A DNA stretch of 39,762 nt from a virus (Duplodnaviria; Heunggongvirae; Uroviricota; Caudoviricetes). Location: IMG/VR virus record IMGVR_UViG_2541047839_000005. One strand, given 5' to 3'. Every line of letters begins with the position of its first letter. The stretch's first letter is position 1. Below are positions 9,782 to 33,509 of this stretch, in pieces. Position numbers and translations under genes: made by a program. The notes beneath the pieces are model-generated. The model did no database searches, was not told the DNA's origin, and saw nothing but the letters and a program-made list of their open reading frames with translations.

Positions 9782-10080
9782 CGGGCAAAGAGGCAATTAT
9801 TCATTACCTGGGGACGCATAAGAGCTTCTGTGCACAGGACGTTGCCGCGGTAACAGGCGCAACCGTAACCAGCATAAATCAGGCTGCGGCTAAAATGGCG
9901 CGGGCAGGAATCCTGGTCGTTGATGGTAAGGTCTGGCGAACGGTGTATTACCGGTTCGCTACCAGAGAAGAACGGGAAGGAAAGGTGAGCACGAATCTGA
10001 TTTTTAAGGAGTGTCGCCAGAGTGCCGCGATGAAACGCTTATTGAGGGTATATAAAAGAACATCAATGGGTACACAATGA
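9778..10080 (+). CDS. ren: Ren protein
   Basis: MTGKEAIIHYLGTHKSFCAQDVAAVTGATVTSINQAAAKMARAGILVVDGKVWRTVYYRFATREEREGK closely matches lambda Ren. Confidence 0.9.
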   Translation: MTGKEAIIHYLGTHKSFCAQDVAAVTGATVTSINQAAAKMARAGILVVDGKVWRTVYYRFATREEREGKVSTNLIFKECRQSAAMKRLLRVYKRTSMGTQ

Positions 10081-10147
10081 TGAAACAGGTGAGTTGATTT
10101 CAAACTGTAGTACAATTCTCTCCAGTTTGAACAGGAAAGAATATGCT

Positions 10148-10480
10148 ATGAACCCTTATATTTATCTTGGTGGTGCAATACTTGCAGAGGTCATTGGTAC
10201 AACCTTAATGAAGTTTTCAGAAGGTTTTACACGGTTATGGCCATCTGTTGGTACAATTATTTGTTATTGTGCATCATTCTGGTTATTAGCTCAGACGCTG
10301 GCTTATATTCCTACAGGGATTGCTTATGCTATCTGGTCAGGAGTCGGTATTGTCCTGATTAGCTTACTGTCATGGGGATTTTTCGGCCAACGGCTGGACC
10401 TGCCAGCCATTATAGGCATGATGTTGATTTGTGCCGGTGTGTTGGTTATTAATTTATTGTCACGAAGCACACCACATTAA
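10148..10480 (+). CDS. emrE: SMR-family multidrug efflux transporter EmrE
   Basis: 110 aa from MNPYIYLGGAILAEVIGTTLMKFSEGF, matching E. coli EmrE (a known DLP12 cargo gene). Four TM helices. Confidence 0.9.
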   Translation: MNPYIYLGGAILAEVIGTTLMKFSEGFTRLWPSVGTIICYCASFWLLAQTLAYIPTGIAYAIWSGVGIVLISLLSWGFFGQRLDLPAIIGMMLICAGVLVINLLSRSTPH

Positions 10481-10510
10481 AAATAATTTGTTTCTAAACG
10501 ACTAAAATAT

Positions 10511-10551
10511 GGAGGCTCTTATATTTATATGAGCCTCGTTTTATGCTTTTT
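10511..10551 (+). terminator. rho-independent terminator downstream of emrE
   Basis: GAGGCTC-ttatatttatat-GAGCCTC followed by GTTTTATGCTTTTT. Confidence 0.6.
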
Positions 10552-10736
10552 GTTAATGTCTTTATTTTTTTATGTATTCTTTTGTGCTTTCAAGATTATG
10601 GCGTAAGAAAATTGCAATACGATTATTGTTGTATATTCAAGATAATGTGACCTTAATTGTCTTTTTAAATAAAAATTAAACAAAAATTATATCTCACCAC
10701 TAAGGTTTATAAAAGCATACGTTAGCAGGTGTCACC

Positions 10737-12263
10737 ATGAAAAAAGCCATAGCATATATGCGATTTTCATCACCAGGTCAGATGTCTGGCGACTCATTAA
10801 ACCGACAGAGAAGACTTATTGCTGAATGGTTAAAGGTAAATAGTGATTATTATCTTGATACCATAACATATGAAGATTTAGGATTAAGTGCATTCAAAGG
10901 AAAGCATGCACAATCAGGAGCTTTTTCGGAATTTTTAGATGCTATAGAGCATGGTTATATATTGCCAGGAACTACATTGTTAGTTGAAAGTCTGGACAGA
11001 CTTTCAAGAGAAAAAGTCGGTGAAGCGATTGAGCGTCTGAAATTGATTTTGAATCACGGTATTGATGTTATAACTCTTTGCGATAATACAGTCTATAATA
11101 TTGACTCTTTGAATGATCCATATTCATTAATAAAAGCCATACTTATAGCACAAAGGGCAAATGAAGAAAGCGAGATAAAGTCAAGTCGGGTTAAATTATC
11201 ATGGAAGAAAAAACGGCAGGATGCACTGGAGTCAGGCACGATTATGACGGCGTCTTGTCCGAGATGGCTCTCCTTAGATGACAAAAGAACGGCTTTTGTT
11301 CCAGACCCCGACAGGGTGAAAACTATTGAGCTAATTTTTAAACTCAGGATGGAAAGGCGCTCATTGAATGCAATAGCCAAGTATTTAAATGATCATGCTG
11401 TAAAGAATTTCTCAGGAAAAGAAAGTGCATGGGGACCTTCTGTAATTGAAAAATTATTAGCGAATAAAGCTCTGATAGGTATATGCGTACCTTCATATCG
11501 TGCAAGAGGTAAAGGAATAAGTGAAATCGCTGGCTATTATCCCAGAGTCATATCAGATGATTTGTTTTACGCTGTGCAGGAAATTCGGTTGGCACCTTTT
11601 GGTATTAGCAATAGTAGCAAAAATCCTATGTTGATAAATCTACTTCGAACAGTTATGAAGTGCGAGGCTTGTGGTAATACCATGATTGTTCATGCGGTAT
11701 CTGGAAGTTTGCATGGCTATTATGTTTGTCCGATGAGAAGACTGCATCGATGTGACAGGCCATCAATAAAGAGAGATTTGGTTGATTATAATATCATTAA
11801 TGAGTTGCTTTTTAATTGTAGTAAAATCCAACCAGTTGAAAACAAGAAAGATGCTAATGAAACTTTAGAGTTGAAAATTATTGAGCTCCAGATGAAAATT
11901 AATAATTTAATTGCTGCATTATCTGTTGCGCCTGAAGTTACCGCTATAGCAGAAAAAATCAGAGTATTAGATAAGGAATTACGAAGGGCTTCTGTATCAT
12001 TAAAAACTTTGAAGAGTAAAGCGGTGAGCTCACTTGGTGATTTTCATGCTATTGACTTAACCAGTAAAAATGGGCGAGAGCTATGTCGTACACTTGCCTA
12101 TAAAACATTCGAAAAAATCATAATCAATACAGATAATAAAACCTGTGATATCTATTTTATGAATGGCATTGTTTTTAAACACTATCCTTTAATGAAAACA
12201 ATATCCGCCCAGCAGGCGATAAGTACTCTCAAATATATGGTTGATGGTGAGGTTTATTTTTGA
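10737..12263 (+). CDS. ybcK: large serine recombinase (YbcK-like)
   Basis: 508 aa. N-terminal resolvase/invertase catalytic domain (AIAYMRFSSPGQ ... SLDRLSR), recombinase domain, Cys-rich zinc ribbon (CEACGN...CPMRRLHRC), coiled-coil tail. Same size and position as DLP12 ybcK. Confidence 0.85.
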   Translation: MKKAIAYMRFSSPGQMSGDSLNRQRRLIAEWLKVNSDYYLDTITYEDLGLSAFKGKHAQSGAFSEFLDAIEHGYILPGTTLLVESLDRLSREKVGEAIERLKLILNHGIDVITLCDNTVYNIDSLNDPYSLIKAILIAQRANEESEIKSSRVKLSWKKKRQDALESGTIMTASCPRWLSLDDKRTAFVPDPDRVKTIELIFKLRMERRSLNAIAKYLNDHAVKNFSGKESAWGPSVIEKLLANKALIGICVPSYRARGKGISEIAGYYPRVISDDLFYAVQEIRLAPFGISNSSKNPMLINLLRTVMKCEACGNTMIVHAVSGSLHGYYVCPMRRLHRCDRPSIKRDLVDYNIINELLFNCSKIQPVENKKDANETLELKIIELQMKINNLIAALSVAPEVTAIAEKIRVLDKELRRASVSLKTLKSKAVSSLGDFHAIDLTSKNGRELCRTLAYKTFEKIIINTDNKTCDIYFMNGIVFKHYPLMKTISAQQAISTLKYMVDGEVYF

Positions 12264-12374
12264 GTAATAATCACTTTTTCAACCGTGCTATAGTAAGAAA
12301 GTTAGGTAAGTACAATAAAATTATCTATCCTGAACGAAGCGTCCTGAGCTATGGTTTTACTATAGGGACTGCCA

Positions 12375-12692
12375 ATGGATGCTGGCGTTCTCGTTCTAGC
12401 AGTTCAACAATCCCCAATCACAAAACAATTCACTGATAACGAACTTTGCACACTCGCCTGGTTATGGCGAGCAGGGAATGTGATGTTAATTGCCTACCAG
12501 AACGTTACTCATCTTCTTCAGGATGCGGAGCATGGTGAAGCTGGTCACTTCACTTCCATCGAGCAAGAATATCCCCAGATACTCAACAGAGCGCGAGCAA
12601 TCCTCGTCCGAGAAACGGCACATGTAAAACTTCAGCCGTGGCAGGATGATAAGTGGAGTCGAGTATTGCCGTATTTGCGTCAAATCTGTTAG
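12375..12692 (+). CDS. hypothetical protein
   Basis: 105-aa ORF between ybcK and the 309-aa cargo gene. No recognisable motif, so it may be non-coding. Confidence 0.3.
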   Translation: MDAGVLVLAVQQSPITKQFTDNELCTLAWLWRAGNVMLIAYQNVTHLLQDAEHGEAGHFTSIEQEYPQILNRARAILVRETAHVKLQPWQDDKWSRVLPYLRQIC

Positions 12693-12896
12693 GAGTATAG
12701 CCGCCAGCCATGAGTGTTGTATTAAAACAAGGATGTCTATATATGGGATAGCGAGAGTATGAATATCAGTTATTTTGAGAGTTAACTGATTGTGAAATTA
12801 GTTTTTTTCACAAACGAGTGGGGTTACTATGATGAGTGTTCTAATGCATAGGGAACACCTAATTTTTTCAATGAATTCAAATTGATAGGATCAAAA

Positions 12897-13826
12897 ATGG
12901 CACAACAGAGAACTACCTCCCTCAGATCCATACCTTTAGACTTAGATGTTAAGCAAGAGGCTGTCATTAACGGTATAGAAATGGGGGTACTCGATAACGG
13001 AATTCCGTACCTTACTCAGAATGGGTTGGCAAATGTTTGTGGTGTTCAGCGTTTGCGAATCAAGGAAATTACCGATGAGTGGGCTCAATCTGTTGAGAAC
13101 GGTATTTTCAAAAAAGGAAGAATGACTTTTATTGGTACATATCTTCTTAATGAAGGTTTTACAGATGAAAAACTTTATATACCAATAATTCGAAATGGTG
13201 TTGAGTACCATGCTTATCCAGATGTTGTATGCATGGCTATACTTGAATACTATGCCTTTGAAGCAAAACAAGCAGAAAGTGAGACTGCAATTAGATCTTA
13301 CAGAGAGCTTGCTAAAAAAGGCCTCAAGACATTTATATACGAGGCGCTAAAATATCAACCGGAGGACCCGTGGAGGCATTACCATGACAGAGTATCTTTA
13401 TTAAAAGATAAGGGAACCATACCTGATGGGTATTTCATTATATTTAATGAAATTGCAGGTATGATGGTAGATCTCATCAATGCTGGATTAGCGATTAATC
13501 AGCATACCGTACCTGATGGCAGTGTTGGTTCTTGCTGGGCGCGTCACTGGAAAGCAAAGGGGTTAGCAACAGAATTTGGAGAAAGAGTAGACTGTGAGCA
13601 TTATTACCCTGAAGATTTTCTTCAGGCAAGTTCCAATCCTCAGATCATTAATGCCTATCCTGATTCTGCATTGTCAGAGTTTCGTAGATGGTTTAAGCAT
13701 GAATATTTAACCACAAAGTTCCCACCGTATATTCTTAAAAAATCAAACGTGCTTCCTGGTGGTACAGAAGATGCTAATCGTCTGATAGAAGCTTTCAAAA
13801 AATCAGAGCTAGAAAATAAACCATAA
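12897..13826 (+). CDS. hypothetical cargo protein (309 aa), nin-region cassette
   Basis: ATG 12897 with AGGA about 6 nt upstream. AT-rich. Occupies the slot filled by ybcL/ybcM in K-12 DLP12. Family not recognised. Confidence 0.6.
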   Translation: MAQQRTTSLRSIPLDLDVKQEAVINGIEMGVLDNGIPYLTQNGLANVCGVQRLRIKEITDEWAQSVENGIFKKGRMTFIGTYLLNEGFTDEKLYIPIIRNGVEYHAYPDVVCMAILEYYAFEAKQAESETAIRSYRELAKKGLKTFIYEALKYQPEDPWRHYHDRVSLLKDKGTIPDGYFIIFNEIAGMMVDLINAGLAINQHTVPDGSVGSCWARHWKAKGLATEFGERVDCEHYYPEDFLQASSNPQIINAYPDSALSEFRRWFKHEYLTTKFPPYILKKSNVLPGGTEDANRLIEAFKKSELENKP

Positions 13827-15511: not shown

Positions 15512-15868
15512 ATGCGTGATATGTATGAAGTAATGGATCGTTGGGGAGCTTGGGCTGCTTCAGACAATAGCGGAGTGGACTGGCAGCCGATAGCGGCTGG
15601 TTTCAAGGGACTTTTACCTCATGGCAAAAAGTCACGGATTCAGTGTGATGATGACGAAGGCATCATGATAGACAGTTGTGTGGCTCGGTTGAGAAGGTAT
15701 AAACCAGAGGAATATGAGCTCATCATCGCCCACTTTGTTATCGGTATCTCATTACGCACTATTGCGAAGAAGAGAAAATGCTCTGATGGCACAATTAGGA
15801 AGGAACTGCAAACTGCAATGGGGTTTGTTGACGGCTGTTTAGCAATGTTAGCTTATAGTATGGCATAA
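15512..15868 (+). CDS. quuD: late-gene antiterminator Q (QuuD-like)
   Basis: MRDMYEVMDRWGAWAAS...WQPIAAGFKGLLP... resembles phage-82/DLP12-type Q. Position is between rusA/ylcG and the lysis cassette. GGAGAAAG Shine-Dalgarno. Confidence 0.7.
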   Translation: MRDMYEVMDRWGAWAASDNSGVDWQPIAAGFKGLLPHGKKSRIQCDDDEGIMIDSCVARLRRYKPEEYELIIAHFVIGISLRTIAKKRKCSDGTIRKELQTAMGFVDGCLAMLAYSMA

Positions 15869-17062
15869 AAAATAAAATAGATTTACTGCCGATTTTTCAA
15901 AAAAGACTGGGAACTGTTTATATCCAACGTAAATAAGGCCTCCATAAAACATGGCTGATGCGAGATATTTAACAGTTCTCATCCTTTTTTTAGCTTTATC
16001 AATCAAACCTGTAATGCTACTCTTAATACTATCTGCATTATCTTTGATTTCTTTATTTTCTTCAAACTTTAAATACTTATCGAAAGCGGACTCCACTCGA
16101 GAACGTAAGTTGTCGAATGTTTCATTGAATATCTCAATAGAAATGTAATTGACTTTTTTTATCATCCAAAGTCCTGCGATAATCAATATTGCTTCGGTTG
16201 TTTCATTAGCCTTCACTAAGCCACCAGCTGCTATTAATGCACCGGGAATAGTCAATGCTTTTGTCTGATTAGATGATATGAATTCGTTAATTTTACTCGT
16301 GAACTCAAGATTTTTCTCATCGAGTTCGTTAAGAATTTTATTTACAGAAAACCTCTTTGTGTAAATCTCATATAGTTCATCATATTTTTTCCTGACGAGT
16401 TCAGTAGAGTTAAGCAAGTCAAAGAAATTGAACGTACCATTTGCTTTAAATACTTCGTTTATGGCTGAGCGTATAACGAGCTTGCGCTCGCTTTTGTGTA
16501 AATCATTGATTTTTATTGTGTCGAGAAGCTCCTTTATAATTTCATATTTAAGAGACGAGTTCGATAAGCGATTAATCTCGCTATATTGTAAAAAATGCGT
16601 GAGTTCGACTGTATAACTTTTGTCTTCATTGGTGAAAAATAAGACAGAGCAGTCACTGTTATGATGATCAGCAATTAATGAAAGGATATCTTTCCACATA
16701 AAGAAAATATGGATTTTTTCGATGCTTTCATTCTTAGAAGTAGGGAGTATTAACGGCGTTCCGATGATATAATTTTTCGGAAGAGCGTTTTGGGTGTTTA
16801 CTCTAGACCAAAAAGACTCAACATTCTCATAAATTATAGCATCATCCCAAGATGAAGCTTGGCGATCTAGCCAAATTTCATTATTTTCGATGCAGGTTGT
16901 TGCCTTTTTATAACCTATAGATTGTAACAGTCTAATTATTTCAGAACTATTTACAATAACAATGCTTTCTTCAAGACTTATGACAGTGTAGTAGCCCTCA
17001 ACTCTGCTTGAGGCTCCGTTAATAATCTGCGCTAATCTTGATAAGTCATCAGCAATTGTCAT
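15848..17062 (-). CDS. hypothetical membrane protein, second gene of the Q-to-holin cargo operon
   Basis: 404 aa. About 260-aa soluble N-terminal region, then hydrophobic helices (ALTIPGALIAAGGLV, AILIIAGLWMI, LASAMFYGGLIYVGY). Start ATG 17062 lies 2 nt after the upstream gene's stop. Very AT-rich. Confidence 0.65.
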   Translation of the reverse strand: MTIADDLSRLAQIINGASSRVEGYYTVISLEESIVIVNSSEIIRLLQSIGYKKATTCIENNEIWLDRQASSWDDAIIYENVESFWSRVNTQNALPKNYIIGTPLILPTSKNESIEKIHIFFMWKDILSLIADHHNSDCSVLFFTNEDKSYTVELTHFLQYSEINRLSNSSLKYEIIKELLDTIKINDLHKSERKLVIRSAINEVFKANGTFNFFDLLNSTELVRKKYDELYEIYTKRFSVNKILNELDEKNLEFTSKINEFISSNQTKALTIPGALIAAGGLVKANETTEAILIIAGLWMIKKVNYISIEIFNETFDNLRSRVESAFDKYLKFEENKEIKDNADSIKSSITGLIDKAKKRMRTVKYLASAMFYGGLIYVGYKQFPVFFEKSAVNLFYFLCHTIS

Positions 17063-17064
17063 TA

Positions 17065-18239
17065 TTAGCTGTCTCTATATCTTTTGAGTTCATCATAATT
17101 TGCCTGACTCAATTTTATCACAATTTCGCATTTGTTGTCAGTGAGAATTACAGGCTTATTTGACTTTTCGTCTCCAATAGCTCCACGCATTATTTTCAAC
17201 TTAAAATTATTGTCGTTATCTGCCACTTCAATTGTAAGCGCGCTTTCAGCTGCTTTAGGAGTTGGTTCAAATTGAGGGTCAATCTGGAAACCATTAAGAT
17301 TAACAAAATCGACAAACGTTCCCTTACATTTGTGTGAATCAGTCAGGCATGAGTCAATTATTTTTGAAATATCCTCTATCTTAACGGACTTATTTCCGTG
17401 TTTATCTTTTGATTTTTTTCCAGTAAGGATTTAACTTCATTGTCAATAGTATCACGCAGTACACGACCGAGTGAGTTTTTACTAGCAAAAATATCTATAG
17501 CACTGAATAATTGCTGAATGCTTCTTTTATTGTCCGAATCATGTCGGCAACCTAATGAGTCTTTGAAAAAATCGCTTTTAGATTTACCTTGCAAGAAATG
17601 TACATATGAGTCACCCTTGTTTTCTGGATAACTGGCTTCGAATAAAGTTAAATCGAACATCGCAGCCTGCCGTAAGGCATCGGTATTAATTGGATTTAAT
17701 CTTGTTGGGGTCAACTTATCCGAATCAAAGTCATAGGCGCTTTGTTTATCAACCATTACGATTAGAAGTTTCCCCAAATCCTCTGGTTCGGTAGACTTAT
17801 AGTGGATGAAAACAACGCTCCCCCCCTGAAGTTGGGCAACTCTCGATTCGTTATTAGCATTATGTTTAAGCTTCTCTATTATAGCTCTAGATAAATCAAT
17901 GAATTCATTATTCTTATTAATGTATTTTTTTAGGATCGTAGGAATGGATGAAGGGTTGTGATCTGAGTCTAGGAAGTTATGAAATTTGTTTTTTCGGCTA
18001 AATTTTTTCTCAATTCTGGTTATGAATTCAGATGTGACTTCATTTTTTAGATCCCAAACTTCACCTAATCGATAATCAAATGCTCTTGAATCATTTTTTT
18101 CAAGATTTGCTGTTACAGCACCAATAGGAAAGTACGATTGTTTGCCCAGCACTACAACATGAGGCGTGGCACCGCATTTATCGCAAGCTACAGTTGGGTC
18201 GTCAAGAACATTGCCACATTCTAAACAAGTTATATCCAT
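17065..18239 (-). pseudogene. zinc-ribbon plus NdpA/YejK-like protein, reading frame broken at a homopolymer
   Basis: N-terminal CxxC..CxxC zinc ribbon (CLECGN...CDKCG). Central region resembles remembered nucleoid-associated YejK (GGSVVFIHY...LLIVMVD; YVHFLQGKSKSDFFKDSLG). The ORF stops at 17376, but a second frame stays open from the T7 run (plus 17411..17417) to TAA 17065..17067 and encodes a YejK-like C-terminus. Confidence 0.6.
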
Positions 18240-18357
18240 TATATATCCCGAATTATAAGAATGAATTTTTATGTGGCTGAAAATTCTATCAAAACACTAA
18301 CGCGTACGCAAAAAATATCGTAATCTGTTAAGTGTGCTCACTTCGCCACACAGCTTA

Positions 18358-18390
18358 AACCCGCCATCGAGCGGGTTTTGTCGTTTCTGG
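18358..18390 (+). terminator. terminator-like hairpin upstream of holin (possible tR' analogue)
   Basis: AAACCCGC-catcga-GCGGGTTT followed by TGTCGTTT, about 140 nt upstream of the holin start. Confidence 0.4.
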
Positions 18391-18530: not shown

Positions 18531-18857
18531 ATGCCTCATAACCCAAATACATGGCTGGAGTTGGTCCAGAGCTGGTGGCGTGGAGACACACCGCTGGGCG
18601 CAGTGATTATGTCGATTGTTATGGCTGGTTTACGTATTGCCTATTTTGGCGGTGGTGGCGGCTGGAAGCGAAAAACACTCGAAATTCTACTCTGTGGCGC
18701 TCTGACGCTGACTTTTGCATCCGCTCTTGAGTATGTCGGATGGCCTAAATCACTATCTGTTGCCATTGGTGGTGGGGTGGGGCTGATCGGTGTTGATGCT
18801 ATTCGTGGGGCTGCAATGAGAGTAATCGGTAACAAGTTTGGTGGCTCTAAGGAGTAA
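18531..18857 (+). CDS. holin (class I, three predicted TM helices)
   Basis: 108 aa with three hydrophobic segments and a charged C-terminus. Immediately precedes the endolysin gene. Confidence 0.7.
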   Translation: MPHNPNTWLELVQSWWRGDTPLGAVIMSIVMAGLRIAYFGGGGGWKRKTLEILLCGALTLTFASALEYVGWPKSLSVAIGGGVGLIGVDAIRGAAMRVIGNKFGGSKE

Positions 18858-18860
18858 TTT

Positions 18861-19337
18861 ATGCAGGTACTAAATTCCCAGCGTAAAGCTTTCCTTGATA
18901 TGGTGGCATGGTCAGAGGGAACGGATAACGGGCGACAACCGACACGTAACCACGGTTATGACGTTATTGTCGGTGGAGAACTCTTCACTGATTACTCCGA
19001 TCACCCTCGCAAACTTGTCACGCTAAACCCGAAACTCAAATCAACAGCTGCAGGCCGTTATCAACTTCTTTCACGCTGGTGGGTTGCTTACCGCAAGCAG
19101 CTTGGCCTGAAAGACTTCTCTCCGAAAAGCCAGGACGCTGTGGCACTGCAACAGATTAAAGAGCGTGGCGCTTTACCGATGATTGATCGCGGTGATATTC
19201 GTCAGGCTATCGACCGTTGCAGCAATATCTGGGCTTCACTTCCGGGCGCTGGTTATGGTCAGTTCGAGCATAAGGCTGACAGCCTGATTGCAAAATTCAA
19301 AGAAGCGGGCGGAATGGTCAGAGAGATTGAGGTATGA
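18861..19337 (+). CDS. R: endolysin R (lambda-type lytic transglycosylase)
   Basis: 158 aa, near-identical to lambda R ([66 protein letters not shown]...). Confidence 0.95.
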
Positions 19338-19798
19338 ACAGATTAACCGCGATTATCTCCGCTCTGGTTATCTGCATCATCGTCTGTCTGTCATGGGCGG
19401 TTAATCATTACCGTGATAACGCCATTACCTACAAAGCCCAGCGCGACAAAAATGCCAGAGAACTGAAGCTGGCGAACGCGGCAATTACTGACATGCAGAT
19501 GCGTCAGCGTGATGTTGCTGCGCTCGATGCAAAATACACGAAGGAGTTAGCTGATGCGAAAGCTGAAAATGATGCTCTGCGTGATGATGTTGCCGCTGGT
19601 CGTCGTCGGTTGCACATCAAAGCAGTCTGTCAGTCAGTGCGTGAAGCCACCACCGCCTCCGGCGTGGATAATGCAGCCTCCCCCCGACTGGCAGACACCG
19701 CTGAACGGGATTATTTCACCCTCAGAGCGCGACTGATAATAATGCAAAAACAACTTGAAGGGGCACAGCTATACATTCGAGAGCAATGCCTCAGATAA
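19334..19798 (+). CDS. Rz: i-spanin Rz
   Basis: 154 aa, matches lambda Rz ([68 protein letters not shown]...). Confidence 0.9.
19554..19736 (+). CDS. Rz1: o-spanin Rz1 (lipoprotein, embedded in Rz in +1 frame)
   Basis: 60 aa with lipobox LVVVGC and a proline-rich mature region. Wholly inside Rz, as in lambda. Confidence 0.85.
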
Positions 19799-21741: not shown

Positions 21742-25422
<3,681 letters not shown>

Positions 25423-25442
<20 letters not shown>

Positions 25443-27139: not shown

Positions 27140-27384
27140 ATGTCGATGTACACAACCGCCCAACTGCTGGCGGCAAATGAGCAGAAATTTAAGTTTGATC
27201 CGCTGTTTCTGCGTCTCTTTTTCCGTGAGAGCTATCCCTTCACCACGGAGAAAGTCTATCTCTCACAAATTCCTGGACTGGTAAACATGGCGCTGTACGT
27301 TTCGCCGATTGTTTCCGGTGAGGTTATCCGCTCCCGTGGCGGCTCCACCTCTGAATTTACGCCGGGATATGTCAAGCCGAAGCA
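27140..27384 (+). pseudogene. E: major capsid protein E, 5' fragment (codons 1 to about 82) truncated by island insertion
   Basis: MSMYTTAQLLAANEQKFKFDPLFLRLFFRESYPFTTEKVYLSQIPGLVNMALYVSPIVSGEVIRSRGGSTSEFTPGYVKPKH matches lambda E to the KPKH codons. The sequence then diverges into island DNA and stops at 27415. Confidence 0.85.
27375..27384 (+). repeat. attL core of the inserted island (AGCCGAAGCA)
   Basis: 10-bp sequence repeated at 38263..38272. Both copies sit exactly where identity to the lambda E gene ends and resumes. Confidence 0.6.
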
Positions 27385-27547
27385 CTTAGCATGGCTTTCT
27401 GAGGCTTTCGTGTAGTTGCTGGTTTTTACACTTAATCTTTTGATAATAAAGAATAAGTTTATCTGGTGCTTTCACTGAATTTTCCTCGTTATCTGTGTGT
27501 TGCAATCATCTCTGTATTGCAGCTTGTATTGCTTTTTGGGGCTAAAA

Positions 27548-28783
27548 ATGGCTGGCGAGAACAAACTGAGCGACAAAGCGCTTAAAGGATATCTGGGGAA
27601 ACCCAGAGAAAAGCAGATCACCATTGCTGATGGAAAGGGGCTTTCTATTCGTGTGAGTACTAAAGGGGCTGTGAGCTTTGTTTTCTTCTACAGGTTAGCA
27701 GGTGGCCGGGCTGCTCCGGTCTGGCTAACGTTGGGTAAATATCCTGATATGTCACTCAAACAGGCAAGGGAAAAGCGCGACGAGTGCCGTGGTTGGTTGG
27801 CTGACAAACGTGATCCGCGTATCCAGATTAAGATTCAGGCTGAAGAACGCTTAAAGCCGGTCACTGTGGAGGATGCACTAAATTACTGGTATGAAAATTA
27901 CTGTAAGGTGCGTCGTAAAACTCATGCTGTAACGCTTGGCAGATTTCGAAAGCATATCTTTCCCTATATCGGTCATTTGCCCGTAAATGACACTCACCTA
28001 TATGAATGGCTGGACTGTTTTGACCGAATTAAACGTAATGCACCAGTTATGGCGGCGTATGTTTTTTCTGACACTAAATTAGCTCTTCGTTTTTGTCGGG
28101 TACGCCAGTACGCGACGTGTGATGCTTTAAAGGATTTGCGCATGAGTGATGTGGGGCAGATTGCAGGTAAGCGGGATCGGGTTCTGGATGAAGCCGAACT
28201 CGGCCAGCTCTGGAAGGCAATTTTTGTCGAGCCTGATTTAAAACTAATGTCTGAATACACGCGAAAAATGTTTGTGCTTTGTACAGTATTTGGATGTCGA
28301 ATGAGTGAAGCCCGATTATCAGAATGGAGCGAATGGGATCTCGAAAGTTGGGTTTGGACTGTACCAAAAGATCACTCAAAAACTGGTGTTGAAATCGTCA
28401 GACCAGTACCTGAAATTCTACGACAGTGGGTAACGGATGTTCACGAAGAGACAAAACATACTGGTTATGTGCTGGGAAGTCTGCGAATTAGAGAAAGCGT
28501 AAGCAAGATTGGGGGGAAAATCGGTAAACGTTTGGGCCATGAAAAACAATGGTCACTACACGACCTTAGAAGAACGCTATCTACTCATCTAAGTGATCTC
28601 GGTGTTGAATTTTATGTAGTAGAACAACTGTTAGGCCATGCGCTACCTGGCGTGGCAGGTGTTTACAACCGGAGTAAGTTTATGGCTAAAAAACTGGATG
28701 CTCTGGAACTCTGGACTACATATCTCAATAGCATCGCAGGTGCTGATTCAAAAGTGATAATCCTCAAACAAAAGGTTGGTTAA
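27548..28783 (+). CDS. int: island integrase (P4-family tyrosine recombinase)
   Basis: About 411 aa from MAGENKLSDKALKGYLGKPREKQITIADGKGLSIRVSTKG (arm-binding N-terminal domain). C-terminal HDLRRTLSTHLSDLGVEFYVVEQLLGHALPGVAGVYNRS carries the catalytic motifs. Adjacent to the att junction. Confidence 0.85.
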   Translation: MAGENKLSDKALKGYLGKPREKQITIADGKGLSIRVSTKGAVSFVFFYRLAGGRAAPVWLTLGKYPDMSLKQAREKRDECRGWLADKRDPRIQIKIQAEERLKPVTVEDALNYWYENYCKVRRKTHAVTLGRFRKHIFPYIGHLPVNDTHLYEWLDCFDRIKRNAPVMAAYVFSDTKLALRFCRVRQYATCDALKDLRMSDVGQIAGKRDRVLDEAELGQLWKAIFVEPDLKLMSEYTRKMFVLCTVFGCRMSEARLSEWSEWDLESWVWTVPKDHSKTGVEIVRPVPEILRQWVTDVHEETKHTGYVLGSLRIRESVSKIGGKIGKRLGHEKQWSLHDLRRTLSTHLSDLGVEFYVVEQLLGHALPGVAGVYNRSKFMAKKLDALELWTTYLNSIAGADSKVIILKQKVG

Positions 28784-28784
28784 C

Positions 28785-29012
28785 ATGAAAAAAATGGCAA
28801 TTGTTGATAAAAAGGGTCTGGAGTACATTCCTAACATTGACCGAATGATCCGTGAGAAAGAATGTCGGGAGCTAACCACTCTTGCGAACAGCACACGCTG
28901 GAAGCTGGAGAAGGAAGGAAAATTTCCTAAGCGGATCAAGATTGGTTCCACTGCTGTTGCATATCGTCTTTCAGAAGTGCAGGCATGGATTCGAGGTGAG
29001 TGGGTAGTTTAA
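28785..29012 (+). CDS. alpA: AlpA-family transcriptional regulator / excisionase-like protein
   Basis: Small HTH protein immediately after int (IDRMIREKECRELTTLANSTRWKLEKEGKFPKRIKIGSTAVAYRLSEVQAWI), the usual int-alpA arrangement of P4-like elements and PICIs. Confidence 0.7.
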   Translation: MKKMAIVDKKGLEYIPNIDRMIREKECRELTTLANSTRWKLEKEGKFPKRIKIGSTAVAYRLSEVQAWIRGEWVV

Positions 29013-29037
29013 ATTATCTCAGAATAAAATATTATGA

Positions 29038-29073
29038 ATTACTGATTTGAGAATTTGTACTCAAATCAGTAAT
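29038..29073. terminator. bidirectional hairpin terminator between alpA and the island cargo gene
   Basis: Perfect inverted repeat (core ACTGATTTGAG / CTCAAATCAGT, extending to about 14 bp) with an 8-nt loop, flanked by T-rich sequence on the minus strand. Confidence 0.55.
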
Positions 29074-29081
29074 AACATTCT

Positions 29082-29618
29082 TTATAAGAGATTAAATCCA
29101 AATAAAGAGTAATCATATACCGGGGTGCATTGCATTCCACTGAATATGCTGATGTTTTTTTCTGTTTCTATCCTTTTTTCAATAAGTTGTTGTATATTTT
29201 TACAGTACAATTTGTGTGTGATGTTATTATCGTAAGCCTGATATAGCAACGTCAATGTTGACGCTAGGAAACATACAGATAAAATTAAAGTAACATATGC
29301 GGTTTTTTTATTTTTTGTCCATGATCTATTTGTTTGTGAAATATAAAGAATTCTGAGGTGGATAATGGTGAGAGACAATAGCAGGCCACTCAATAAAATA
29401 AGTATTGGGTTTGCGTATTTTATTAATGGTTGAGAGCAAAAAACTATTATAGCTCCTGTGACTGCGTATGAGAAAAAGGAGTAATTAAACTTCTTACTCC
29501 TTCTCTCAAGTATTTTAATTTCATCTTGTGTGGGGGTTTTAGATGCCTCTAATATAAGTTTATTGAATGTTTCTGTTATCTTGTTTTTTGTGTTTGTGGC
29601 TATTTTTTTTAGATTCAT
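29082..29618 (-). CDS. hypothetical multi-pass membrane protein (island accessory cargo)
   Basis: 178 aa with about 3 hydrophobic helices, very AT-rich, isolated by AT-rich non-coding DNA and a hairpin terminator. No family recognised. Confidence 0.55.
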   Translation of the reverse strand: MNLKKIATNTKNKITETFNKLILEASKTPTQDEIKILERRSKKFNYSFFSYAVTGAIIVFCSQPLIKYANPILILLSGLLLSLTIIHLRILYISQTNRSWTKNKKTAYVTLILSVCFLASTLTLLYQAYDNNITHKLYCKNIQQLIEKRIETEKNISIFSGMQCTPVYDYSLFGFNLL

Positions 29619-29968
29619 AGCATTCTAACTCCCTTAACTTATTTATTACTTTCTCTTTATGATAAGAGAGGGGAATGACTTGGTAAAGTGATTTGTCATT
29701 AATAATGATAATCCTTGCGATAAATATTTCTGCAAGTTATTTATCTGTTTGTTGCTATCTTGTTAAGCGTTGGGTGTGGTTTATGTTTGGAGCGACTTTA
29801 TTTAATCGTGATTTTATGGATTTATATTTATATCCTGTAAGATAAGCGCATGTTAGTTCAGGAGTAGTGTCAGATAAAATTATTCGGAGTAGAACTACCT
29901 TTTCTGTTTATTGCCAGTATTTACATAGCAATGCGCCGTAGTTACTCACATCACGGCGCTGATACTAA

Positions 29969-30271
29969 TTATTCAGATTCTTTGGCTTTACGCCGCTGGA
30001 GTTCTTCACGAGCGACGGCTACGAGTTGCCCGATTTCCTCCGCTGCCTTGATGCCGATTTGTTCGACCTTAGCTAAGGCATCCAGTGAAGACACGAGGGG
30101 ATTTTCTCCGCTTCCTTCTGCCTGGCGGCGGGCGATCTCACCGCGCATGGCGGTTACTATGAATCCGGCGTTGCTCTCGCCGTCCAGTTTTACGGATTCC
30201 ATGCCCTCCATAACATCGTGGGGAACCCTGATCGTTGTCATTTGCGATTTTGCATTTTTGTATACAGACAT
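29969..30271 (-). CDS. putative small DNA-binding regulator (ribbon-helix-helix-like)
   Basis: 100-aa ORF divergent from the island early operon. MTTIRVPHDVMEGMES resembles an RHH beta-strand. Candidate island repressor. Weak call. Confidence 0.4.
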   Translation of the reverse strand: MSVYKNAKSQMTTIRVPHDVMEGMESVKLDGESNAGFIVTAMRGEIARRQAEGSGENPLVSSLDALAKVEQIGIKAAEEIGQLVAVAREELQRRKAKESE

Positions 30272-30289
30272 AGTTAATCACCAATTTGT

Positions 30290-30395
30290 TATGTGTATAT
30301 CACTATACACAAAAGTGATATATAAAAACACTTGCAATGTATATCACCACAATATAATGTATATCTCACATTATGGTCGCTATGTATCTCACAAT
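30290..30395. promoter_or_regulatory. island divergent promoter region with repeated operator-like motifs
   Basis: Five copies of TGTATATC(T)CAC / GTGATATA in both orientations between the divergent genes 29969..30271 (-) and 30480..30845 (+). Confidence 0.5.
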
Positions 30396-30479
30396 GATCG
30401 ATTCATAAAAACGACGAAACCCGGCAGTGCGCGAACACTAACCGGGCTTCTAACCAAACCGTTAAACGAGGTAACGATT

Positions 30480-30845
30480 ATGGCTGGAACACAGCATACC
30501 CAAACTCACCCTAAATTTATATACACCTTTCTGGCACTACACCACGACCGCATGGCAGATGGAGCAACTACGGTACATGTAGCCGCTGACACGCTGGTTG
30601 ATGCCCGCAAGATGGTTAAGGAGATGGGCTATACTGCGGCTTTCTGGAAAGGGCGTGAAGAAAACACGCTGTTTATTCAGAAATGCGAAAACAATTTCAT
30701 CTGGCGTTTTATCGCCCTGAGTACGGCACAACCGCGCGTGATTCACATCGTGGCCACCAGCGAACAGGAAGCCCGCCAGCAATCCCCGGCTGGTTGCGTG
30801 AGGGTATTCGCCGCCCGTATTCGTCAGGAGGTATGCCGTGCTTAA
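30480..30845 (+). CDS. hypothetical protein (first gene of the island rightward operon)
   Basis: 121 aa from ATG 30480 with GAGGT Shine-Dalgarno. The longer ORF-track entry 29931..30845 is antisense to the divergent gene in its 5' half and is probably not real. Confidence 0.5.
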   Translation: MAGTQHTQTHPKFIYTFLALHHDRMADGATTVHVAADTLVDARKMVKEMGYTAAFWKGREENTLFIQKCENNFIWRFIALSTAQPRVIHIVATSEQEARQQSPAGCVRVFAARIRQEVCRA

Positions 30846-31023
30846 AACCTTCCGTGTATTTGCCCGAGCGGTTAACCCACGAGGCCACACAATTGGTATC
30901 ACTCAGAACGTGAAGGCTGTTAATGTTCAGACGGCTATTGCTGTGGTGAGAAGCGAATCATCAGAATATGGCTTATCACAAGTCATTATTTCAGCAGTGT
31001 ATGAATTAAAAGAGGTGCATTAA
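30838..31023 (+). CDS. hypothetical small protein
   Basis: 61-aa ORF tightly packed in the island operon (overlapping stop/start). Confidence 0.35.
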   Translation: MLKTFRVFARAVNPRGHTIGITQNVKAVNVQTAIAVVRSESSEYGLSQVIISAVYELKEVH

Positions 31024-31214
31024 TGCAGGAAATTACATTACACGAAGCCGCTGAACGTGCGCACCAGACAGAAATTATTTGCCGCCTTCTTGAGGTATAC
31101 CCGAACAAAATTACAGATGCTGATATATCCGCACTGGCGAGCCTACTGGCGCGTCTTTCGGGAAGTGTCGCTAGTTTTTTGATTGAGGAAGAAAGTAAGC
31201 TGGTGGGGGATTAA
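31023..31214 (+). CDS. hypothetical small protein
   Basis: 63-aa ORF starting where the previous ORF stops. Confidence 0.35.
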   Translation: MQEITLHEAAERAHQTEIICRLLEVYPNKITDADISALASLLARLSGSVASFLIEEESKLVGD

Positions 31215-31436
31215 ATGAATACAGAACGGGAAGTCTTTTTTAAATTGTTAGCATGTGCAGAAAGTTCATTAACTTTAAATAATTCAGCAAAAGCAATATT
31301 AAATATGTGGCTTGATTGCATAAATGACAATGAAGATGCAAATATTGCTTATGGCCTGTTGTCACTTATTGATGAAGCAGCAGAAAAACTCAATGACGCA
31401 ATAAATAGTGCCCTGTTATCAAATAAGTCGAGTTAA
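31215..31436 (+). CDS. hypothetical small protein (AT-rich)
   Basis: 73-aa ORF in operon context. Confidence 0.35.
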   Translation: MNTEREVFFKLLACAESSLTLNNSAKAILNMWLDCINDNEDANIAYGLLSLIDEAAEKLNDAINSALLSNKSS

Positions 31437-31453
31437 GTCGAGGAATAAATAAT

Positions 31454-31753
31454 ATGGAAATGAAAAATTCTGGCTTTATTGCCAGCGGCCCCGCTCGGCC
31501 TGAATTTATGAACGGCGATATTTACCGCGATAAATACGGCGGCACGGTAACGATTAAAGGCGTGGCAGAACGGCGCATCACTTACCGCCGTGAGGGGTAT
31601 AGCTATGACTGCGTGATGCCTGTTTATCAGTTCCGGCGTGATTTTTCCCTGGTATATGCCGCACCTCGCAGTAAGCCCACCAGCAGGGAAAAAGCGCGGG
31701 GAAACATCCAGAAAATGAAAAGCATGATTAACGCATTCAGGGGCAAAAAATGA
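31454..31753 (+). CDS. hypothetical protein
   Basis: 99-aa ORF immediately upstream of and overlapping the primase gene start. Confidence 0.4.
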   Translation: MEMKNSGFIASGPARPEFMNGDIYRDKYGGTVTIKGVAERRITYRREGYSYDCVMPVYQFRRDFSLVYAAPRSKPTSREKARGNIQKMKSMINAFRGKK

Positions 31754-33501
31754 AACTGGCACCGAACTTAAAAAAACAGCCACGCGACAGACTGACAGAG
31801 GTAATCATCTTTGCAGGTAGTGATGCGTGGAGCCATGCGAAAGAGTGGCAGGAATGGGCGGGTAAACATATTGCCGCCGACGATGTGCCGCCTGTCGTGC
31901 TGGCTGATGAGCAACTGAAAAACATCATCGATTACCGGATCATTGATGAAGATCGTCAGTGTGTGCGTGTTTACCGCGCAGGACATATCACAGAGCACAG
32001 CATGACGCAGATTGTTACGTTACTGGCTGTGGCTGGAGTGAAGACCGTACACGAATACGCGGGGATTACTGACACCAGCCCCGTGGATTTATCCGACCAG
32101 TTGCCGCGACTCAAAGAGGAATGCGAGCGTGGGGAAAGTCTGGTGCTTAATCTTCCGACGAAGCAAAAGGCGCAACTTTCACAGATGGCAGACAGTGAAC
32201 GTGCACAACTACTTGCCGATCGCTTTGATGGTGTGTGTGTTCATGCAGAAAGTGAAATCGTCCACGTATGGCGCGGCGGGGTATGGTGTCCGGTCAGCAC
32301 AATGGAGCTGAGCCGCGAAATGGTGGCGATCTATTCAGAGCACAGGGCCACGTTCAGCAAACGTGTAATCAATAACGCCGTGGAAGCGTTAAAAGTTATT
32401 GCCGACCCCATGGGGGAGCCGTCCGGTGATTTACTACCGTTCACTAATGGTGTGCTTAACCTGAAAACGGGGGATTTTTCTCCGCACTTACCGGAGCACT
32501 GGAGCACCACGCACAATGGCATTGAGTACACGCCACCAGTAGCAGGGGAAAACATCCGCGATAATGCGCCAAATTTCCATAAATGGCTTGAACATGCTGC
32601 AGGAAAAGACCCGCGCAAGATGATGCGTATATGTGCCGCGTTATACATGATTATGGCGAACCGCTACGACTGGCAGATGTTCATTGAGGCCACCGGAGAC
32701 GGGGGAAGCGGTAAGAGTACATTTACCCATATTGCCACCCTGCTTGCTGGCAAACAGAACACCGTAAGCGCAGAGATGACATCACTCGATGATGCAGGAG
32801 GGCGCGCGCAGGTTGTCGGGAGTCGTCTTATCGTCCTTGCCGATCAGCTGAAATATACGGGGGAAGGCACGGGCATCAAGAAAATCACGGGAGGCGATCC
32901 CGTTGAAATTAACCCGAAATATGAGAAGCGATTCACGACGATAATAAGGGCGGTGGTACTGGCAACCAATAACGACCCGATGATCTTTACCGAACGGGCC
33001 GGAGGTGTGTCACGCCGTCGGGTGATTTTCCGGTTCGACAACATTGTAAGGGAGGACGAAAAAGACAAGGAATTACCGGAAAAGATAGCGGCAGAAATCC
33101 CCGTAATTATCCGCCGCTTGCTGGCTAATTTTGCTGACCCTGAAAAGGCACGGGCTTTATTACTGGAACAGCGTGACGGTGATGAAGCTCTGGCAATAAA
33201 GCAGCAAACGGATCCGGTTGTTGAGCTTTGCGCGGCGCTGGAGTTTCTGGAGGAAGCTCGTGGGCTAATGATGGGCGGTGGTGGTGACACCGTGAAGTAC
33301 ACGACCAGAAACAGCCTTTACCGTGTCTATATGGCCTTCATGGCATATACAGGAAAGGGGAAATGTTTGAGCGTGAATGAGTTCGGAAAGGCTATGAGGT
33401 CAGCGGCGAAAGTTTACGGATATGAATATATTACGCGAAAAGTTAAGGGAGTCACGCAGACCAACGCAACGACTACTGATGATTGCGATGCGTTTTTATA
33501 A
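31750..33501 (+). CDS. island primase/replicase (P4-alpha / PICI Pri-Rep-like, SF3-type NTPase)
   Basis: 583 aa. Walker A GDGGSGKST and Walker B-like LIVLAD in the C-terminal half. Followed immediately by an iteron-rich origin. Confidence 0.8.
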   Translation: MKLAPNLKKQPRDRLTEVIIFAGSDAWSHAKEWQEWAGKHIAADDVPPVVLADEQLKNIIDYRIIDEDRQCVRVYRAGHITEHSMTQIVTLLAVAGVKTVHEYAGITDTSPVDLSDQLPRLKEECERGESLVLNLPTKQKAQLSQMADSERAQLLADRFDGVCVHAESEIVHVWRGGVWCPVSTMELSREMVAIYSEHRATFSKRVINNAVEALKVIADPMGEPSGDLLPFTNGVLNLKTGDFSPHLPEHWSTTHNGIEYTPPVAGENIRDNAPNFHKWLEHAAGKDPRKMMRICAALYMIMANRYDWQMFIEATGDGGSGKSTFTHIATLLAGKQNTVSAEMTSLDDAGGRAQVVGSRLIVLADQLKYTGEGTGIKKITGGDPVEINPKYEKRFTTIIRAVVLATNNDPMIFTERAGGVSRRRVIFRFDNIVREDEKDKELPEKIAAEIPVIIRRLLANFADPEKARALLLEQRDGDEALAIKQQTDPVVELCAALEFLEEARGLMMGGGGDTVKYTTRNSLYRVYMAFMAYTGKGKCLSVNEFGKAMRSAAKVYGYEYITRKVKGVTQTNATTTDDCDAFL

Positions 33502-33509
33502 AAAATGGC

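Follow-up and report, generated by a model that had tools for sequence, protein, structure and literature searches.

What does a single small membrane-protein gene do in a phage satellite that is itself lodged inside the capsid gene of another phage? This question was raised by a minus-strand gene at 29082..29618 of the IMG/VR virus record IMGVR_UViG_2541047839_000005 (Caudoviricetes), a stretch of 39,762 nucleotides that is called the window below. An earlier interpretation made from the letters alone, termed here the sequence-only reading, had described the region as an accessory locus of a satellite and had proposed that the gene could protect the host or the helper-satellite pair against competing phages, or exclude superinfection. 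In the present analysis, it was found to be a real gene under purifying selection, located in a variable slot. It belongs to an uncharacterised protein family, and its relatives lie in accessory slots of satellites and prophages and in defence islands. An anti-phage role exerted at the cell envelope was the best reading of the gene, with exclusion of genome entry as the favoured form. We infer this function, and it is offered as a tentative preference.

The coding sequence starts with ATG and specifies a protein of 178 amino acids (aa). It was recognised from the list of open reading frames (ORFs), the hydropathy profile and the conservation of the family, and its three hydrophobic segments were in agreement with the multi-pass membrane protein that had been proposed. 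A Shine–Dalgarno sequence, AAGGGAG, was read at 29629-29635, 10 nt before the ATG. The identical gene is entered in RefSeq as WP_001588495.1 under the name 'hypothetical protein'. The surrounding DNA was as AT-rich as previously noted, with a G+C content of 0.30-0.33 over 29001-30000 (0.302 for 29001-29500 and 0.330 for 29501-30000). A perfect hairpin between the gene and alpA had also been pointed out, and it was found at 29038..29073 as an inverted repeat with a 14-bp stem and an 8-nt loop, lying between the two convergent genes and beginning 8 nt past the stop codon of the minus-strand gene. Its folding energy was −21.2 kcal/mol (z = −6.4), and 0 of 200 shuffled sequences folded equally well. 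Judging by this fold, the hairpin is probably a two-way transcription terminator or insulator. The AT-rich non-coding region upstream of the gene, previously given as about 350 bp, occupies 29619..29968 (minus strand) and is 350 bp long. It held no credible ORF and none of at least 60 aa, merely a 50-aa ORF with a TTG start and the beginning of a spurious long ORF. An Rfam scan of 27300-31000 found no family inside the membrane-gene locus or this upstream region. A sigma-70-like site, TTTACC-17-TATCAT, was located at 29687..29659 with 9 of 12 matches to the consensus, and the number of such sites in the region was not above that in shuffled sequences. At the far end of the region, just downstream of a YlcI-like regulator gene, lies a GC-rich hairpin with a 7-bp stem (29932..29960, GCGCCGT...ACGGCGC). 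It is part of the conserved regulator module, and the match to other islands with a YlcI module begins at 29924-29931.

The region 28500-30480 of the window was compared by megablast with 5426 complete Escherichia coli genomes. An int-alpA module of this type, with at least 95% identity, was present in 175-177 of them. The homology among islands stopped at about 29004, in the last alpA codons, and restarted at about 29925, shortly ahead of the hairpin behind the YlcI-like gene (breakpoints at query positions 492-505 and 1425-1432). The segment 29005..29924 is a swappable cassette made up of the hairpin at 29038..29073, the membrane-protein gene and its upstream region, and its G+C content was 0.302, compared with 0.456 for the island and 0.471 for the window. 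Among the approximately 175 genomes with this int-alpA, this cassette was carried by 68, a TIR cassette (PDC-S35) by 37 and a DUF2971 cassette by 33-36. The comparison of the slot across related islands, which the sequence-only reading had suggested, therefore gave a clear result: the gene content varies, with at least five cassette types, and the membrane-protein gene is carried by 68 of about 175 islands, not by all of them, so it is not core. The alternative occupants, in islands with 90-99% identical int-alpA, were DUF2971, TIR, a 273-aa unknown protein and an unknown gene disrupted by IS66. The TIR occupant matched Pfam CAP12-PCTIR_TIR and the PADLOC candidate PDC-S35 (E = 7e-67), and the DUF2971 occupant had a weak match to PDC-S31; three further occupants and the membrane protein had no match at all. 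All 68 genome copies and 21 of 21 IMG/VR copies shared the same context of capsid fragment, int, alpA, membrane gene and ylcI-like gene, and the cassette copies were combined with differing primase alleles.

The slot between int-alpA and the YlcI-like and replication modules is thus a true accessory slot. The proposed position between int-alpA and a regulatory module was borne out by the Pfam matches of the integrase and AlpA on one side and a YlcI/YnfO-family gene at 29969..30271 on the other. The zone is two-sided, with DUF2971, TIR and other genes downstream of alpA, and with the membrane protein, sometimes together with putAbiC, on the opposite strand downstream of the YlcI-like gene; in the window island only the YlcI side is filled. 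The description as a satellite accessory locus was right about a variable slot in a satellite. The satellite itself is not a free P4- or SaPI-like island: it is a helper-embedded phage-inducible chromosomal island (HE-PICI) at the site E:Phage_cap_E:80, inside the lambdoid capsid gene E of a prophage (PMC10111431). The 3' accessory slot of this island, at 37535-38264, had no annotated gene and just one 95-aa minus-strand ORF. In sister islands, the content of this slot varies between DUF2971, TIR and a DUF262+HEPN pair that resembles Nsn/PD-T4-2. Immune systems have been reported at the 5' or 3' ends of phage-inducible chromosomal islands (PICIs) (Fillol-Salom et al. 2022, as cited in PMC11364771).

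The gene was intact at 537 nt in 21 of 21 IMG/VR loci and in about 65 of the 68 complete genomes. Two allele classes were distinguished in E. coli, with 23 genomes carrying the window type and 45 the other type. The dimorphism was concentrated in codons 78-119 (29262..29387, minus strand), a patch delimited by comparison of the alleles that covers the inner half of the second transmembrane segment (TM2), a cytoplasmic loop and the first half of TM3. The nucleotide identity was 67.5% in this 126-nt patch, compared with 99-100% in the flanks and most of the gene. Within the patch, the synonymous divergence (dS) was about 0.52 and the nonsynonymous divergence (dN) about 0.40; outside it, their ratio omega was 0-0.24, which indicates that the gene is under purifying selection. 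The patch is regarded as an imported or long-maintained dimorphic segment, and codons 78-119 were also the least conserved segment family-wide. The lysine-rich cytoplasmic loop is encoded by adjacent A6 and A7 runs at 29300-29316 (codons 101-106). Some database entries, a minority, were truncated: variant P0006 breaks at the A6/A7 run, P0007 diverges in the same loop, and P0008 breaks earlier, past residue ~60. The truncations could be true frameshifts or homopolymer sequencing errors, and the changes at the run could also reflect slippage-prone switching.

Hydrophobic segments were placed by the Kyte–Doolittle method at about residues 46-61, 71-94 and 107-127. In the predicted layout, residues 1-45 are cytoplasmic and TM1 (46-61) leads into a periplasmic loop, SQPLIKYANP; TM2 (71-94) and TM3 (107-127) are joined by a basic loop on the cytoplasmic side, and the C-terminal part, which contains Cys139 and Cys164, is a helical hairpin in the periplasm. 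The orientation was derived from the charge distribution. The net charge was +6 for the N-terminus and +4 for the TM2-TM3 loop, both of them positive in nearly all members, and the predicted periplasmic loop and C-terminal domain carried little net charge; an N-in/C-out topology was therefore predicted, in which both the conserved loop and the domain with the cysteine pair are periplasmic. Conservation peaked in the predicted periplasmic loop (0.71) and in the C-terminal domain, where nine columns reached at least 0.8. The family motifs were QPLxK[FY]ANP in the loop and HDxYCxxIQ...EKNSxIFNNMQCR with two invariant cysteines in the C-terminal domain, and P71, C139, Q143, F159 and C164 were invariant in distant relatives. 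AlphaFold2, when supplied with 14 diverse sequences, gave an all-helical model with a mean predicted local distance difference test (pLDDT) score of 84; with near-identical sequences alone, the pLDDT was 44 and the model was uninformative. A Cys139-Cys164 disulfide probably staples the helical hairpin.

The membrane-protein family is uncharacterised and very rare. A word-indexed protein search with the single sequence returned E. coli copies only. When 1.84 billion representative proteins were searched exhaustively with HMMER, only seven distant relatives came up, with 29-37% identity and lengths of 113-175 aa. A profile search, for which P0016 was the query representative of the family, gave about 30 clusters among 5.8 billion; they came from Enterobacterales or Pseudomonas only, and the named ones were mostly 'hypothetical'. 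Relatives in other genera, at 21-37% identity, kept the length, the three TM segments and the motifs. No significant match for the membrane protein was obtained in Pfam, PHROGs, NCBIfam or PADLOC, nor for any of 14 family members scanned singly against PADLOC and Pfam. Furthermore, a profile search of PDB sequences gave no match, Foldseek found no related fold among viral and PDB structures, and tblastn gave no match in 50,697 phage records and 72,556 plasmid records. There was no sequence or fold homology to known superinfection-exclusion or abortive-infection membrane proteins (SieA, SieB, Imm, gp15, RexB, AbiC and others), and no match to transporters, holins or other lysis proteins, the kinds of homology that would have spoken for another function according to the sequence-only reading. 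A literature search by the accession WP_001588495.1 found no mention.

Three further lineages of embedded satellites were found to carry a relative with 35-40% identity to P0016 on the strand opposite to int, directly downstream of a YlcI-like gene of 59-60 aa. The gap was 66 bp in a Kosakonia/Phytobacter satellite, which has an extra 203-aa gene after alpA; 57 bp in an Enterobacter asburiae satellite, which lies in a CLP-protease gene and has putAbiC next on the same strand; and 12 bp in a further satellite (L059) with DUF2971 after alpA. The small YlcI-like regulators of these related islands and that of the window aligned with one another. By this arrangement in the sequence, the membrane gene of the related islands is part of the transcription unit of the YlcI-like regulator, 12-66 bp downstream of it. 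The earlier description of an isolated gene therefore holds for this window, where it is alone in its slot, and does not hold for those islands. The 203-aa protein of the Kosakonia satellite (Kosakonia sp. S29, L020 8534-9145, minus strand), encoded just after alpA, has an N-terminal membrane helix and no Pfam or PADLOC match.

Most of the relatives whose surroundings were informative lay beside defence systems. The neighbour was a Hachiman helicase (HamB) in one locus (L008), a SIR2+DUF87/HerA pair in Kluyvera, and a type IV methyl-directed restriction enzyme in Pantoea, where the relative comes after a type VI secretion cluster. The P. mandelii relative had as neighbours a retron XI reverse transcriptase-protease (48-bp adjacency), SoFic and DUF4238. 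In Pseudomonas sp. R3-56, PDC-M29A/B was about 3 kb away, and a pyocin S/immunity locus was 3 kb away. The Edwardsiella relative lay at the accessory end of a prophage with HigBA, and the Yersinia relative at the edge of a prophage remnant. The Ewingella relative and one on a contig of a metagenome-assembled genome (MAG) were among ordinary chromosomal genes. On two unrelated contigs (L008 8609-9844 and L057 7617-8840), a family member was followed by the same minus-strand pair, a 187-191-aa unknown protein and DUF4760, and the upstream system differed, being Hachiman in L008 and SIR2-HerA in L057. This shared pair may form a three-gene module with the family member, or it may be a common hotspot flank. 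A conserved two-gene module was also considered and rejected, as the 203-aa neighbour in Kosakonia had no similarity to the 191-aa or DUF4760 neighbours of L008. Likewise, the retron type XI of P. mandelii was rejected as a partner, because the adjacency is confined to a single locus and type XI has been described as a stand-alone reverse transcriptase-protease fusion.

Taken together, the periplasm-facing conserved surface, the placement behind a regulator with the expression in lysogeny that it suggests, and the defence neighbours of the relatives led to the envelope-acting anti-phage reading. The membrane gene is accessory cargo of the HE-PICI, carried between its int-alpA and replication modules. 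It is transcribed opposite to the late genes of satellite and helper, downstream of the YlcI-like gene and its own promoter-like site, and the strong hairpin would shield it from alpA. Since the gene lies on the opposite strand, behind the regulator and insulated by the hairpin, its expression is most likely while satellite and helper are quiescent. The protein would then act at the cell envelope to guard the lysogen from incoming phages, most likely by interfering with the passage of their genomes through the inner membrane (superinfection exclusion); membrane-level abortive infection would be less likely. The PICI EcCIMP1 contributes to superinfection immunity despite having no recognisable defence system (PMC11773190). 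A more far-reaching proposal is that the proteins form a new family of single-gene envelope anti-phage proteins, co-transcribed with the regulator in the manner of cI-rexAB, in which the disulfide hairpin blocks competing phages and the TM2-loop-TM3 alleles set the spectrum; in this full form it is possible, though doubtful.

Several points weigh against the anti-phage reading. The protein has no homology to known exclusion, abortive-infection or defence proteins, and the proposed function is drawn from the place of the gene, the genes beside its distant relatives and the predicted topology; the topology and the disulfide are themselves predictions. Some relatives, those of Ewingella and of the MAG contig, are in plain chromosomal surroundings, and the relative beside the type VI secretion cluster and that 3 kb from the pyocin locus would fit toxin immunity. 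Moreover, the E. coli alleles differ most in the cytoplasmic loop and TM3, not on the periplasmic face. Specificity may therefore be read within the membrane or the cytoplasm, which would fit an abortive-infection sensor equally well. The promoter call is weak, with its 9/12 matches and no excess of sites over shuffles. In this window, a hairpin and 350 bp lie between the membrane gene and the regulator gene, so that co-transcription of the two is not evident here.

Among the other explanations, an abortive-infection effector or sensor-effector of the membrane was the nearest, and was considered unlikely. Such a protein would depolarise or permeabilise the inner membrane, alone or with a partner, so that the cell dies or arrests before phage release. 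The presence of putAbiC next on the same strand in the Enterobacter satellite would suit it, as would the abortive-type systems retron XI, Hachiman and SIR2-HerA beside other relatives. The hypervariable allele patch, consisting of the cytoplasmic loop and TM3, also suits a sensor facing the cytoplasm, and single members gave weak, sub-threshold matches to the 2TM effectors Saf_2TM (E = 0.038) and DUF4231 (E = 0.021). However, the surface conserved across the family is predicted to be periplasmic, no significant match to Abi, SLATT or 2TM effector families was obtained, and the gene stands alone in this island, with neither a sensor nor an enzymatic partner. Hundreds of E. coli strains also keep the gene intact and seem to tolerate it, which is neutral and not decisive. 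A lysogenic-conversion or host-fitness factor unrelated to phages (e.g., for envelope stress tolerance or colonisation), carried like the morons bor/iss, seemed somewhat less probable still. The moron-like build, with low G+C, a probable terminator of its own and the opposite strand, would agree with it. The carriers include bloodstream, avian-pathogenic (APEC) and adherent-invasive (AIEC) isolates, e.g., NRG 857C, and some relatives are plain chromosomal genes. Nevertheless, the other occupants of the slot are defence-type and not virulence genes, and most relatives with informative surroundings adjoin defence systems. The carriers also came from soil, water, dog, pig, chicken and human, with no obvious link to a niche.

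Slightly more improbable was an orphan immunity protein that protects against a toxin acting on the membrane or in the periplasm (a pore-forming colicin, a pyocin or a type VI effector), as a competitive trait of the satellite. The protein resembles the immunity proteins of pore-forming colicins, which are of a similar size range, in being a small multi-pass inner-membrane protein with a conserved periplasmic face. The Pantoea relative lies directly after the type VI secretion cluster, and the relative of Pseudomonas sp. R3-56 is 3 kb from the pyocin S/immunity locus. Yet the nearest same-strand neighbour in Pantoea is the type IV restriction enzyme, no toxin gene adjoins the E. coli, Kosakonia, Enterobacter, Kluyvera, Edwardsiella or P. 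mandelii loci, and none of the 14 members scanned had a Pfam match to colicin or microcin immunity. Colicin operons are typically plasmid-borne, and tblastn gave no match in the 72,556 plasmids. A part in the life cycle of satellite or helper, by holin- or antiholin-like timing of lysis or as a membrane sensor that feeds the YlcI-like regulator for induction, was judged very improbable. The gene does lie directly downstream of a YlcI-like gene repeatedly, in four embedded-satellite lineages, and class I holins likewise have three TM helices. These holins are N-out/C-in with a charged cytoplasmic C-terminus, which is unlike the predicted N-in/C-out protein with its 45-aa basic N-terminus and cysteine-pair C-terminus. 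Moreover, about 60% of the islands that share this int-alpA lack the gene, among them islands that have a YlcI-like regulator, and it is therefore dispensable for the life cycle. Its relatives also occur outside satellites, in defence islands, and no holin or lysis family matched in Pfam or PHROGs. In addition, holin, endolysin and spanin genes are already present in the helper (lysis cassette at about 18531-19798), and the membrane gene is not beside an endolysin or spanin gene. Finally, AT-rich DNA yields hydrophobic, lysine-rich ORFs, and the database label is just 'hypothetical protein', so a chance ORF in an AT-rich spacer was also weighed. Conservation excludes it in practice: relatives 21-37% identical in other genera keep the length, the TM pattern and the invariant residues, there is purifying selection outside the patch, the Shine–Dalgarno sequence is good, the frame is intact in nearly all copies, and the AlphaFold2 model became confident (pLDDT 84) once diverse relatives were supplied. 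Assignment to three known groups was also rejected. For SLATT/2TM effectors, there were sub-threshold matches of single members only and no partner gene in the island; for holins, no family match, a place outside the lysis cassette and charges that predict N-in/C-out; and for colicin/microcin immunity, no Pfam match, no adjacent toxin gene and no match in the plasmid collection.

The satellite occupies 27386-38264 of the window. It is preceded by the 5' fragment of the helper major capsid gene E, which it interrupts (27140..27385, plus strand; identified from ORFs and RefSeq relatives), and is followed by the 3' part of the same gene (38265-39053; Pfam Phage_cap_E profile positions 94-328, E = 8e-50). 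The integration module (27548..29012, plus strand) was identified by Pfam and consists of a tyrosine integrase (27548-28783) and AlpA (28785-29012). The regulator at 29969..30271 (minus strand) is a YlcI/YnfO-family protein of 100 aa with a ribbon-helix-helix-like N-terminal domain (NCBIfam NF041551, E = 8.5e-20; PHROG 6522). Its gene points away from the icd-like/primase operon and is next to the membrane-protein gene, upstream of it on the same strand. The RefSeq carriers of the identical segment showed the order int, alpA, membrane gene, YlcI/YnfO, icd-like, DUF4222, primase, single-stranded DNA-binding protein (SSB), capsid E-like, decoration, AlpA-like helix-turn-helix (HTH) and small terminase, the whole set lying within the lambdoid capsid gene. 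The Pfam matches of the island were Arm-DNA-bind_3 + Phage_integrase, Phage_AlpA, DUF4222, D5_N + DUF5906, Phage_Nu1 and a second AlpA-like HTH. The island has the architecture of an HE-PICI, with an inward tyrosine integrase, AlpA, a replication zone and a late zone. Its site also corresponds: terminase, portal, S49 protease and gpD genes precede it, and in RefSeq relatives it is followed by FI and tail genes. As site and gene order are identical, its integrase very likely falls within the one phylogenetic clade that has been described for these islands (PMC10111431). The satellite's own capsid gene (34711-35751) was 45% and 35% identical to the two helper E fragments, and its own decoration gene (35761-36102) was 38% identical to helper gpD. 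A split helper capsid gene together with the satellite's own capsid and decoration genes is the published HE-PICI arrangement (PMC10111431). A scan for an attL/attR core of at least 10 shared nt gave one 11-nt match only, away from the junction; the true att core is around the 'PKH' codons and is shorter than 10 nt.

Further observations were made on the satellite and its helper. A weak Rfam match to the SymR antisense RNA was found at 30413-30485 (minus strand; 35.3 bits vs. a gathering score of 61, E = 3.6e-4), in the divergent region between the YlcI-like and icd-like genes and antisense to the leader of the operon that runs rightward. It may be an immunity or antisense RNA of the satellite, or chance. 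In IAI39 (L002 9289-11771), the island integrase is cut by an IS3-family insertion and lies beside a remnant integrase at tRNA-Arg, and the island primase has an internal stop; that satellite copy is immobilised, and its membrane-protein gene is still intact. The portal gene of the helper is split into two ORFs (23841..24311 and 24351..25442), and the RefSeq annotation of GN06489 has an internal stop there. From this sequence, capsid production by the helper of this strain may be impossible, with or without excision of the satellite. A 314-aa protein at 12882-13826 (plus strand) matched the prophage defence protein BstA (PADLOC, E = 3.8e-121). Its gene lies in an AT-rich helper stretch (10000-13500, G+C 0.32-0.42) and adjoins a large serine recombinase at 10737-12263 (Resolvase, Recombinase, Zn_ribbon_recom). 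Another AT-rich block, at 15848-18369 (minus strand, G+C 0.33-0.37), separates the lysis genes of the prophage from its late regulator. This block specifies an NA37-type nucleoid-associated protein and a 404-aa protein that matched nothing in Pfam or PADLOC, and is further moron-like cargo.

Satellites with this integrase type alone, embedded in the late operon of lambda-like prophages, are found in about 3% of complete E. coli genomes, and the contribution of embedded satellites to the cell has hardly been explored. The commonest occupant of their cargo hotspot after alpA, in 38% of islands, is an unstudied membrane protein. If a role in exclusion or defence proved true, a very small single-gene envelope defence would join the catalogue, a concrete benefit of the satellite to both host and helper would be at hand, and the two alleles would offer a natural system for mapping specificity. 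If no phage phenotype were seen, the case would caution that a hotspot position and defence-island neighbours are insufficient to call a defence gene. The island type and the defence hotspots of satellites are already known and the gene family is uncharacterised; the gene is accordingly considered a well-supported candidate and not a new kind of system.

The island was compared with the E:Phage_cap_E:80 HE-PICIs ('11capE' family; Tommasini, Mageeney & Williams 2023, PMC10111431), and it was the same in lying inside a lambdoid capsid gene E and being co-oriented with it. In these islands, the zone after alpA has been described as a dynamic 'Bro zone' with DNA-binding proteins of the Bro network and immunity RNAs (PMC10111431). 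It was different here, where the zone has a membrane-protein gene and no Bro-family gene. The main text of that paper (PMC10111431) contains none of the words 'membrane', 'TIR', 'DUF2971', 'cargo' and 'YlcI', and 'defense' appears in its reference list only. The conserved flanks and swappable low-G+C cargo were in agreement with the 5'/3' immune hotspots of PICIs (Fillol-Salom et al. 2022, as cited in PMC11364771) and with the P2/P4 hotspots (Rousset et al. 2022, PMC9122126). Unlike in both, the cargo here matched no known or candidate PADLOC defence family. The sister islands carry TIR, DUF2971 and DUF262+HEPN in the same two slots.

The arrangement can also be set beside that of exclusion genes in classical phages. 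In phage lambda, rexAB is expressed alongside cI. Like lambda cI-rexA-rexB, P22 SieA, HK97 gp15 and T4 Imm, the present gene encodes a small inner-membrane protein next to and downstream of a maintenance regulator. It also resembles lambda cI-rexAB and the exclusion proteins in being on the strand that is presumably active in quiescence and dispensable for the life cycle of the element. In contrast to RexB of lambda, the membrane protein has no RexA-like partner, and it has no sequence or fold relation to SieA, gp15, Imm or rexAB (PHROGs; Foldseek, viral and PDB). We know of no counterpart in those exclusion proteins for the predicted periplasmic cysteine-pair domain. A moron is a promoter-gene-terminator unit of deviant base composition in lambdoid phages. 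The cassette was similar to lambdoid morons in its deviant G+C (0.30 vs. 0.456 for the island), its own probable hairpin terminator, its weak promoter-like site and its transcription against the flanking genes. It was different from them in that it is carried by a satellite and that, in related islands, the gene lies within the transcription unit of a regulator and is not autonomous.

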